Origin: Amoebophrya sp. A120
Lineage: Eukaryota > Protista > Dinoflagellata
Assembly: GCA_905178155.1 (NCBI GenBank)
Contig: CAJINV010000007.1
Coordinates: forward strand, 1,705,341-1,769,340
Length of the DNA: 64,000 bases
Direction: 5' to 3'
This document shows positions 5,814 to 64,000 of this stretch, piece after piece. Numbering within the stretch: the stretch's first letter is position 1; each line of letters opens with the position of its first letter. The notes beneath the pieces are model-generated. The model had not been told where the DNA came from, made no database searches, and was given only the letters and a program-made list of their open reading frames with translations. The translations under genes were made by a program, and so were the position numbers.

Positions 5814-7389
5814 ATGGCCGCAACCGTGCAAAACTTTCCTCAGCAGCCTTTACAGTCGTATTGTTGACTCTGTCTTGTTCCCCCATGCACCCCCCCCCCC
5901 CGAAACCGAGTAAAAAAGTACTTTAATAAAGACTTGGTGTACTAGTCTTTAGACCCTGCTGCTGCTGCTGCTAGATCTATCGCTTTCGTCCTGCATTTCA
6001 TTTTCTATTTTTTTTTTTTTTTGAAATTTTTTTTTTTTTTTCGCGGACCGTTCTTCCCTTTTCGCAAGTTCTTTATTTGACCACTTGCTTGTTCAATAAA
6101 TTTTAATTTTTGTTTTATTATTTCACCCACTGCAACGGCCCAGGCCCACGGGACTAAGTTCTTACACGCTCAGCTGCGAGAAGACCCCCTTTCAATACTA
6201 AAAGACAAAATGGTAATTTCCGACCAGCTTGCGGAAGAGCTGGGGACGAAAATCACCACCGATTTTGCCCACCGGAAAACGGTGAAGCAACGGCGGGAAC
6301 TGGTGTCCAAAGTGCTCGTATGGATTGCAAAAATGTCTGGGTCTGGAAGATTGCAACTTGTCATGCTGAAACCGAATCATGCAAAAATCTGCGTTGCATG
6401 ACTGCCAAAAGCTGCCCACTTTCGACCAAGTTGGGCGGGAGTTTCTCATGCAGGATGGGCATGGCAGAGATCTCCCGGACTCTGTCATGCTAGGTCCCGC
6501 ATTCCAGACCTCATGGGTCATGGAAAACCTGCATGACAAGTTTGCATTCTTCCAGACCCAGACATTTTTACATTTGATAGCTCGGCCCGAAGGATGAGGA
6601 AACCGGGAAATTTCCGGACAAGGAGGTTCGGAAACTATCCTGAGTAAAAACGTACCCACACCAGAGTTGTAATGCAGATTTGCAAAGACAGGAAGACTTG
6701 TAATGCGCAACCCCATGACAGGCATTCTCAAGCGTGTTTGCGTTTGGGAGCTTGTAATACTGTAAACAGGATTAGCAGATCGATTTGTTATGCGGATTCC
6801 CTTGCTAAACTGCACTACAATACAGCCTGCAACTTGTCATGCGTGACTCACAAAACTCCTAGGCTTGTGTTGCAAAATCCTCATCCTGACTCTGGTGTGG
6901 GTACGTTTTTACTCAGGAGAGAAACTGGCGGTTATTCTGGTGCAAATAGCCGTGTACACGGGTAGTTTAGATAAGTTCCAGTCTTTGAAACGGGACGACA
7001 AAATGTCCATGAAGAAAATTGTGAACAAGATGGTGAACAACAAAAAAGACGGCGGGTTCCCGAAACTGTGCAACACCCTGTTCGAGTCTGGGCCGCCGTT
7101 ACCGCCCATAGTGTGGAAGTTGCGCGAGGCGCCGAAGCCGGTCGGATTCATGGCAAAGATGGCGAACAAACAATCCTTGAGCAAACAGTGCTCCCAGAGC
7201 CTGTTGAAGAGTGGAAGCACCGCATCGTTGGGCGATCTGGTGGTGTCTGCCGCGGCCGGAGACATGGCAAAGAAATTGGAAAGACGGCAGTCACAGGAGC
7301 AGGGCAGTCTGCTCGGAGGAGGTGCCGATGAACAAGTAGGGGCTCGTCCAGCAAGTCCGTCTGCTGGAGGAGCTCTCGGTTCGTCGTAA
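5814..7389 (+). CDS. Hypothetical protein, about 4 exons, interrupted by two TIR elements
   Basis: Removing elements 6319-6579 and 6636-6920 (each plus one TSD copy) gives continuous ...RELVSKVLGPKDEETGKFPDKEVRKLAVILVQ... to stop 7389. The first exon (ATG 5814, MAATVQNFPQQPLQ) is tentative. Confidence 0.6.
6319..6579. mobile_element. Introner-like TIR element, family B
   Basis: TAT...ATA ends; inverted repeat aaaaatgtctgggtctggaaga / tcttccagacccagacattttt; perfect TSD gctcg (6314-6318, 6580-6584). Confidence 0.9.
6636..6920. mobile_element. Introner-like TIR element, family A (orientation opposite to the other two copies)
   Basis: About 30-bp TIR tatcctgagtaaaaacgtacccacaccagagt (right end reads AGA); perfect TSD gaaac (6631-6635, 6921-6925); interior is the reverse complement of 16146-16424 and 40847-41125. 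Confidence 0.95.
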
Positions 7390-8432
7390 GAAGAAACATT
7401 TTTTTTTGCTGATGAAAACCTGGCTGCTGTTGACGAGAGTCAATTTCTTCTTGCGATGAATACGATGCAGCAACAAGAGCAGCAACGCCAAAAACTTTCT
7501 TTGTATGAGCAAAACGAATGCTTGAGCTCGTGTACCCCACGACGACGCTGAAAAAAAAATAAAAATTCATACAGCGGCTTTGATCTTCGTCTTCCAAGAA
7601 CACATCCAATTTTACAGACTTTCAAATCGAACACGCACGACATCGGAAGAACTCCAGCTGCATCGGTCTTCTAAAACAAAAGCAGCATTAGAGATCGATG
7701 AATTTGTTTCTCAGTGTCTCTTCATCAGGACGAGCGCTCCTTCTCGGTTCCAAAGTTCCTCCACTGACCTGGACTTCGGTTGGTTTGATATTCGTGTGAA
7801 AAAGGCAAATTCGGAAGCTATCTCGGTTGTGGTGTTTCGCACGCCCAGTTTCATTTTCCAGTCGGTTGTCGCATTTATGGTCGCTCGTGTACTTATCCAG
7901 TTCGTTCTTCTTCTCCTTCATTATCGATTCGTTTCGTGCAGGTGCTTTTTCGTTCCGAACAAGCATCCGTTTGTCAACAAACGGAGCGTCGCTAACCTAT
8001 TTCGTGGCAGAAACTTACACTTACTTCACTTTTCCATCAAGGGAAACAAGGAGTGCATATGATTTGACGCAATCACATGGCAGGACCTCAAGATTTCTCG
8101 TACCCATGATACTCAGTTTTTACGGATCACAACTACACTTTTACTTAGTTGCGTATGCGTTGAGCACTTTTTTGAATCACGGATGAAAGTCACCAGATTT
8201 TTATAGCCATGCATGTGGACACCGAGCTTCGTAGGAGTAGCAGGCATGCCCTTAGTACGCACTGGTAACTTGTTCTACCCGGCGTAGAAGCAAGCTGAAC
8301 CTGAAAGACGCAGACCTCACATAACCTTTACATCTAGCTCTTGCGTCCACTGAGCAAAAAATGCTTATTTCTACATGCTGCTAGCCTAAAAAAAACTTCT
8401 ACCCCCACCAGTATCTTCACAGAAGAGCCATC

Positions 8433-63600: not shown

Positions 63601-64000
63601 AGGTGGTCTACGCCGACGAAATGGAGAAAACCGGGCGCCTGAAGCGGTGTCTGAAGGACGCGGAAATCGGGTGCGGGGGCGAGGGGCTGTGTCTGGTTTT
63701 TGTGGAGACGAAAAAGGGCGCGGACGTGCTGGAAAAGGACTTGTGGAAAAACTCCTTCGCCGTTACCGCGATCCACGGCAACCGAAACCAACAGGAACGA
63801 GAGGAGGCCCTGCAGGCGTTCCGGACCGGACAGAACCCGATCCTGGTCGCAACCGACGTGGCCGCCCGAGGGTTGGACATCCCAAACGTCTCTTTGGTAT
63901 TTTTGCGAACATAGAACGTCGTGATTTTTTCTGCTGGTTGTTACGTGCGAACAAAGTTGGCATGACAGGACCAGCTCGATTTTTGTCAAGACGGCCTGAT
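60667..64000 (+). CDS. DDX3: DEAD-box RNA helicase DDX3/DED1, 3' part beyond the window
   Basis: [84 protein letters not shown] across multiple exons. Confidence 0.93.
61326..61486. mobile_element. Introner-like TIR element, family E
   Basis: TIR tatcactggaaaaagtgttaacgttaacgg / ccgttaatgttaacactttttcctgtgata; perfect TSD gcggc. Confidence 0.92.
63223..63433. mobile_element. Introner-like TIR element, family E-like
   Basis: tatcacaagaaaaaagtgttaca / tgtaacacctttttcttgcgata; perfect TSD gaaca; removal restores VEHTNMGE. Confidence 0.92.

Follow-up and report, generated by a model that had tools for sequence, protein, structure and literature searches.

In the 64,000-nt stretch analysed here, from the genome of the marine parasite Amoebophrya sp. 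A120 (contig CAJINV010000007.1 of assembly GCA_905178155.1, positions 1,705,341 to 1,769,340 of the forward strand; hereafter the window), a short internal motif, (T/C)TGT[ACG]ATGC, recurs in introners of several families, with a marked tendency to occur as same-strand copies 31–33 bp apart. We think it likely that the motif copies are double-stranded DNA sites, bound in phased pairs by a transposase or by a partner protein needed for mobilisation. That the motif is a protein-binding site common to the families is well supported by its conservation, by a constrained degenerate position and by the fixed spacing; the binding itself is deduced from sequence. The sequence-only reading made earlier had offered a transposase site and an intron-definition signal as options for such a common site; the first is favoured by the data below, and the second is not.

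We annotated 18 elements with terminal inverted repeats (TIRs) and 33 GT-AG introns in the window, using a scan for TIRs and target-site duplications (TSDs), RNA-like joints and reading-frame continuity. The elements have TAT…ATA ends with TIRs and are flanked by 5-bp TSDs; in a test without preset length, 27 family-A copies gave a TSD of 5 bp in 20 cases, no exact TSD in six and 8 bp in one. At least 30 joints, taken from contigs of sequencing runs presumed to be RNA, fall into the window, and the figures given below refer to the joints listed. Eleven of the 18 elements have a joint, each removing exactly the element and five bases, i.e. one copy of the TSD.

To this set we added related loci. 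A metagenome scan with the family-A TIR gave 119 loci (L001–L119), all on contigs with the prefix JACKZZ01, with a total of 368 kb after removal of overlaps. These loci contain 319 elements (A, 98 copies; B, 80; C, 62); in 239 kb of shuffled sequence, one element was falsely called. Seven ‘elements’ longer than 450 bp, mostly merges or false calls, were kept in the count of 319. A length limit of 420 bp removed them for the profile and spacing tests; these used 330 elements, the 18 of the window among them. As the loci were picked by exact TIR match, terminal conservation of family A was not used. One locus copy is 98% identical to the window copy at 16146; no sequence orthologous to the window was found in the related loci.

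The sequence-only reading had started from one 8-mer, TGTCATGC or GCATGACA depending on orientation, and all 20 positions cited there are exact reads of it. With three copies missing from that list (5160, 30278 and 51292), the window holds 23 copies, 13 on the + strand and 10 on the − strand, against a mean of 2.57 and a maximum of 7 in 100 dinucleotide shuffles of the window; it is the commonest 8-mer of the window that is not of low complexity. The TIR elements (4.1 kb) hold 17 copies (4.1/kb) and the GT-AG introns (7.1 kb) four (0.56/kb); two fall in 19.1 kb of intergenic or untranslated (UTR) DNA (0.1/kb), and the exons (30.2 kb) and GC-rich blocks (3.4 kb) have none. Shuffling of individual introns gave expectations of 0.39 for the TIR elements and 0.41 for the GT-AG introns, and neither observed count was reached in any of 200 shuffles. 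By these class counts and shuffles, the 8-mer occurs in introns far above the background expected from composition; its rarity in exons had been noticed and was borne out.

The 8-mer TGTCATGC is one variant of TGT[ACG]ATGC, a word of about 15 bits usually preceded by A-A-Y-T. There are 37 copies of TGT[ACG]ATGC in the window, in 15 of the 18 elements. In the related loci the exact motif was present in 313 of the 319 elements and in every one of the 15 families that have more than one member; its density was 11.8/kb inside elements and 1.5/kb outside, where undetected elements are included. An element carries about three exact sites, or four to five as scored by profile. In each of the five largest families the fixed motif columns were more conserved than other interior columns (A, 0.96 versus 0.76; B, 0.92 versus 0.67; C, 0.96 versus 0.78; the next two, 0.87 versus 0.71 and 0.89 versus 0.83). 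The fourth, middle base is degenerate in a constrained way: among 489 family-A sites it was A in 123, C in 227, G in 129 and T in 10. With respect to distance from the termini, no internal site occurs at positions 11–31 from either element end, and a weaker version of the motif lies inside the TIR, at position 4, in nine families. A dyad, TTGY-N3-RCAA, was also tried as the motif; it was weaker than the directional motif (14 matches) and was dropped.

The spacing of same-strand copies peaks at 31–33 bp. A separation of ∼31 bp was noticed in the window before the related loci were taken; of 355 literal pairs no more than 70 bp apart, 179 are spaced by 30–34 bp, and 273 of the 330 elements hold a profile-scored same-strand pair at that spacing. 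Counted by families, such pairs occur in 15.5 of 36, while random placement gives 3.7 (maximum 10 in 2000). After merging of families into groups, 8 of 15 groups have a pair at 30–34 bp, against three at most for other spacing windows starting outside 27–30. Sequences between the paired sites are only loosely alike, so the pairs are not a recent tandem repeat. Three turns of the DNA helix measure 31.5 bp; a spacing of 31–33 bp therefore points to double-stranded DNA. Site distances in family A (e.g. in 16146–16424) alternate between about 33 and 48 bp, with a second peak of spacing at 79–85 bp; sites on opposite strands recur at 16 and 47–48 bp.

The families sharing the motif had been described as otherwise unrelated, and this description did not hold. 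The end consensus of the 319 elements has G at position 9 and AAAA at positions 11–14: among 638 ends, A was found at positions 11, 12 and 13 in 609, 609 and 629 and G at position 9 in 558, TAT and the A-run having belonged to the detection rule. As end consensus and TSD length are common to the families, we regard them as one group. The family profiles cross-match, weakly, and shared ancestry therefore contributes.

Selection on the motif was assessed from differences between copies. Were replication limited to copies with intact sites, motif columns should change little on internal branches and decay once an element has inserted. In 29 close pairs of family-A copies (<6% apart, none sharing flanks) the motif columns differ by 3.0% and other columns by 3.9% (p 0.20), while more distant pairs gave 3.4% versus 11.0% and 5.6% versus 18.6%. 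On the family-A tree, changes per column in motif and other columns numbered 0.26 versus 2.09 on internal branches and 2.37 versus 5.23 on terminal branches (p 4e-5), where terminal branches mix changes from before and after insertion; the terminal-to-internal contrast in family C agrees (p 0.016).

We then considered strand. In family A one strand carries 3.6 motif sites and the opposite strand 0.03, yet the elements lie in both orientations to the gene (27 versus 33 among 60 called; of the 12 window elements called, 11 were called correctly), as do those of family B (24 versus 29) and family C (20 versus 24), family E2 being likewise without orientation bias. Relative to the RNA, with splicing of locus copies taken from interruption of coding sequence, the sites number 313 on one strand and 359 on the other; the check for strand bias relative to transcription was thus negative. 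Among the 11 window elements with joints, two have no exact site, three have only TGT[ACG]ATGC, two only its reverse and four have both strands. TGT[ACG]ATGC is absent from 28 of the 33 GT-AG introns and from three of the 18 TIR introns, two of these three having RNA joints. Strand-specificity on the pre-mRNA and presence in essentially all introns of a class are traits of a spliceosomal cis-signal, and the motif has neither. In predicted folds 16 of the 18 window elements pair at least 10 of their first 20 bases with the far end, and splicing is likely to rest on such paired ends, not on the internal motif.

In the mechanism that we propose, a multimeric protein would occupy a pair of sites that face the same side of the helix, and the transposition complex would form on these sites together with a terminal TAT-N5-G-Y-AAAA signal. 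Onward copying would be confined to elements whose sites are intact; one shared enzyme would thus preserve the word across all families as the remaining sequence drifts, and the sites would decay once an element has inserted. The TA..TA ends and 5-bp TSD suggest an integrase-type DDE enzyme. The least certain part is whether the transposase itself does the binding or a cofactor supplied by the host.

Several observations weigh against this mechanism. No transposase domain was found among 30 open reading frames (ORFs) of the window, including those of two GC-rich blocks, or among 106 locus ORFs of at least 230 aa, and no long TIR-bounded (autonomous) element was found in the window or the related loci. 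Part of the likeness between families comes from the shared ancestry mentioned above. One group of eight elements has a 30–34 bp pair in only one of them; furthermore, the sites are spread through the element, with an orientation to the nearer end that varies by family, unlike simple end-proximal arrays. The terminal-to-internal contrast was not significant in family B (p 0.076), motif columns are still 2.2-fold depleted of changes on terminal branches, and the close pairs share partners and hence are not independent. Copies in DNA that is not coding-like have slightly fewer sites (B, 2.86, n=7, versus 3.55, n=65; C, 2.0, n=3, versus 2.42, n=53; no significance test). The last four observations leave room for selection at the level of the host, and a modest host-level constraint on the motif may exist.

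Outside the related loci, the TIR patterns had no match in the viral contigs or prokaryote genomes scanned. Within L059, an apparent 6.8-kb element with ends of family A proved to be a pair of distinct copies, one on either side of a kinase gene that contains many introners; this gene (5780–9900), of the calcium-dependent type judging from kinase and EF-hand-like text in its translations, is broken by about ten motif-rich introners.

Among other explanations, we regard it as unlikely that a host DNA-binding protein sitting on paired sites of the gene marks the element for co-transcriptional removal, or marks it and helps it move, replacing U1-type recognition. Acting on DNA, such a protein would be strand-blind, and strand independence with helical spacing suits any binder of double-stranded DNA. 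Residual constraint on terminal branches is in line with this explanation, as is the failure of Farhat et al., in the available text of PMC7789003, to detect either a U1 small nuclear RNA (snRNA) or a transposase in A120. Aged elements often retain one site, and TGT[ACG]ATGC occurs in five of the 33 GT-AG introns against 1.4 expected, a number reached in 5 of 200 shuffles. Still, the two spliced elements without exact site appear in the same contigs as their neighbours, most GT-AG introns do without the motif, and motif columns show no significant shortage of recent differences. A combined version, which we hold for doubtful and slightly less probable again, has a host protein that reads the 31–33-bp pairs, mobilises all families into coding sequence and passes the transcript to U1-independent removal, the elements having no recognisable transposase of their own; if true, one cis-code would serve both spread and splicing.

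It is improbable that the motif serves the handling of chromatin, as a site through which a host factor would silence, phase or protect the elements or direct the complex to coding DNA. The spacing is of the kind expected on double-stranded DNA, and insertions are almost only in coding-like DNA: 18 of 18 in the window lie within genes, and 270 of 310 in the loci are coding-like (caller sensitivity 0.88, false rate 0.07). Sites for silencing, however, would be selected against in replicating lineages, yet the motif is kept on internal branches.

Even less probable is a signal in RNA that defines the intron, be it a branch point, an snRNA target, a site for an RNA-binding protein or stems between inverted copies. 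Confinement of the motif to introns speaks for such a signal, and the motif is an imperfect palindrome, so that both strands look alike. Folding of the 18 window elements gave pairing of 14–24 motif bases with another copy in three; in 14 there was no motif–motif pairing and in one it comprised 2 bases. As elements invert, there is no fixed distance to the 3′ junction, and direct-repeat spacing of 31–33 nt has no obvious single-strand reason. An RNA role in intron definition is disfavoured because sites show no strand bias, splicing is seen in introns that carry the motif on either strand alone or not at all, the GT-AG introns mostly lack the motif and constraint is concentrated on internal branches; we consider it already largely refuted.

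Finally, there is very little to recommend a functionless relic, of one repeat-holding ancestor of all families or of methylation-type mutation (CpG to TpG/CpA) converging on such words, as the sole cause: profiles do match across families and the elements are CpG-poor (observed/expected 0.65–0.74) and rich in TpG/CpA (about 1.45), but within families conservation is far higher in the motif columns than in those beside them, the middle base is variable yet avoids T, and the paired sites keep their distance even as the sequence between them diverges. Relics probably account for the single copies in old introns.

With binding by a mobilising protein as the preferred explanation, we turn to individual elements of the window. 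Family A is represented by 6636..6920 (TSD GAAAC; motif pair at element positions 33 and 64, i.e. 31 bp apart; 8-mer at 6835; no joint among those listed) and by two introners in reverse orientation, 16146..16424, with four exact sites, all reading GCAT[CGT]ACA on the RNA strand, and a splice joint at 16140–16425, and 40847..41125 (8-mer 40925, joint 40841–41126). The family-B introner 6319..6579 (TSD GCTCG; TIR and TSD scan, profile E 5.5e-72) has 8-mers at 6359, 6483 and 6531 and no joint among those listed; a diverged member, 17439..17728, has the 8-mer at 17553 with a weaker partner 32 bp further (joint 17433–17729), and 39147..39417 has it at 39281 (joint 39140–39417).

Family C includes three aged introners: 14780..14970, without exact TGT[ACG]ATGC yet spliced (joint 14777–14974); 17787..17978, with one exact site (joint 17784–17982); and 18509..18708 (8-mer 18641, joint 18506–18712, profile E 9e-9), where the intron 18508–18712 already reads as GT-AG. 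Its other members are 25042..25191, with 8-mers at 25111 and 25142 (31 bp apart), a motif-like word in the TIR at position 4 and no joint among those listed, and 41180..41329, with four TGTAATGC-type sites, no 8-mer and a joint at 41175–41331. A family-D introner, 49630..49848 (8-mer 49700), restores the frame on removal. Two introners lie in a DEAD-box helicase gene: 61326..61486 of family E, with 8-mers at 61376 and 61408 (32 bp apart), where removal with one TSD restores the frame, and 63223..63433 of family E2 (8-mer 63362), supported by TIR scan, frame and profile. An aged element related to E2, 50307..50559, and a decayed non-canonical TAT..ATA intron, 39947..40133 (spliced, joint 39945–40138), have no exact site.

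The 8-mer had also been reported from introns without visible TIRs, which is correct for the copies at 24142 and 39524 and fails for two others. The copy at 38893 sits in the decayed TIR introner 38811..39087, recognised by ends and TSD (joint 38808–39091; no significant family profile match), and that at 47088 in a singleton TIR element, 46982..47262 (13/16 TIR match, exact 5-bp TSD TTGCT, joint 46975–47262). The two that stand are possible relics: the single 8-mer 24142..24149 (+) in the GT-AG intron 24069–24271 and the single strong site 39524..39531 (+) in the GT-AG intron 39513–39698, both introns starting GTAT and having a joint. Two more single 8-mers are 30278..30285 (−), in a predicted GT-AG intron from 30241 with uncertain 3′ end, and 63960..63967 (−), in an intron starting at 63897 that is cut by the window end, so that a TIR cannot be judged; both introns start GTAT. 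The isolated copies 5160..5167 (−), outside annotated genes, and 51292..51299 (+), in a stretch covered unspliced by RNA-like contigs and likely 3′ UTR, correspond to the background rate.

A start with GTAT was seen in 16 of the 33 GT-AG introns: in all five that bear TGT[ACG]ATGC and in 11 of the 28 that do not (one-sided p 0.018 in a post hoc test). Family profiles had no match to the motif-bearing GT-AG introns (best E 0.19–0.42). Single motif copies in TIR-less introns are plausibly relics of introners. The two TSD copies of the elements 14780, 17787, 18509, 38811 and 39947 show mismatches, by which the splice cut can be located after TSD base 3–5 in four of them and after base 4–5 in one; from these mismatches it follows that the exon retains the upstream TSD copy. 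A cut after TSD base 4 gives introns of the form N-TAT…ATA-NNNN, convertible to GT-AG by small changes. The insertions show little sequence preference in the TSD, and element lengths fall in all three frames. In some RNA-like contigs, sequence of family A continues into that of family B (41021 to 39386) or the two ends of one B element are connected (6558 to 6324); these joins probably reflect other copies or assembly paths, and may represent hybrid or circular forms.

A kinase exon of the window is 100% identical over 567 aa to an Amoebophrya sp. A120 protein, and the A25 counterpart is 80% identical. The genes, co-oriented on the + strand, include four cGMP-dependent-type kinases, two KH-domain genes, a methyltransferase-like gene and the DEAD-box helicase. 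At 8433–13739 there is an intronless kinase ORF of 1768 aa with cyclic-nucleotide (cNMP) domains, while adjoining paralogues carry up to 13 introns. Two GC-rich (66%) intergenic blocks, 19950–21540 and 54790–56560, with long stop-free frames on both strands, had no Pfam match and no motif copy; they are possibly decayed mobile elements. A 28-bp near-perfect hairpin (37002–37058) lies within a GT-AG intron, and no Rfam match was obtained anywhere in the window.

The elements as such are already published introners of A120. According to Farhat et al. (2021, PMC7789003; text consulted in part), the introners of this genome number tens of thousands, belong to about 2000 families and are 150–320 nt long, with inverted repeats (IRs) of TAT, about seven variable bases and then As, direct repeats (DRs) of 3–5 nt and non-canonical junctions; the elements analysed here agree in host, TAT IR, variable bases, A-run, direct repeats, splicing and repetition in the genome. 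The same paper, in the text available to us, describes only terminal IR and DR motifs, treats the families as separate and argues against general mobilisation by a transposase, whereas here an internal motif links the families. The internal motif and its spacing are the new part: they were not found in the text or supplement text of PMC7789003, nor in the searched text (for the motif) and most supplements of PMC12130899, and could be mentioned in figures or in Roy et al. 2023.

Gozashti et al. (2025, PMC12130899), in the portion consulted, list an A120 introner family 38 with ‘5-bp TSD, TA/TA termini’, ∼810 bp long, with ORF remnants of Copia/Gypsy-like (long-terminal-repeat-like) homology and without Ginger termini. 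Family 38, one of several given there as ‘TIR DNA, unknown’, has TSD and termini as in the window elements and differs from them in its length and its ORF remnants. IS3EU/GingerRoot DNA transposons (see also PMC6839031), as far as PMC10045372 was seen, have TA..TA termini as here and a TSD of usually 6 bp, and their integrase-related DDE transposase would suit a 5-bp stagger; as the TSD is 5 bp here, we do not file our elements under that name. The TSD is 4 bp in Ginger1 and 4–5 bp in Ginger2 (same part of PMC10045372). The 5-bp TSD of our elements falls in the Ginger2 range. Ginger1 and Ginger2 have TG-type termini, which the TAT..ATA ends of our elements do not match.

For the repeated internal sites, the closest parallel that we can cite is in hAT elements: the Herves transposase binds a repeated 8-bp subterminal motif (CG/AATTCAT), and Ac, Tol2 and Tag1 are cited as similar (PMC3143072, partial text). 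There, as here, a short word with variants is repeated internal to the TIRs and conserved. The hAT repeats, on that account, are required for binding and lie at both ends, whereas the A120 motif has a different sequence, goes with a 5-bp TSD, is distributed through the whole element in 31–33-bp pairs with putative binding, and is common to families with different TIRs. In SOS splicing, as described in the part of PMC12779559 available, TIR elements are removed from animal mRNA by pairing of their ends, independently of the sequence of the inverted terminal repeats, and excision is imprecise; similar end pairing is predicted here, while the assembled junctions are exact, element plus one TSD. 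The likeness concerns the element ends and not the internal motif.

One conserved word with fixed spacing in all sampled families suggests a single mobilising system for the introners of A120. The motif pair is a specific pull-down bait for the mobilising protein and a signature by which the autonomous parent could be recognised; the motif is also a marker for tracing introners as they age into GT-AG introns. Furthermore, the finding separates the cis-code for transposition, made of internal sites and ends, from that for splicing, which likely consists of the paired ends.

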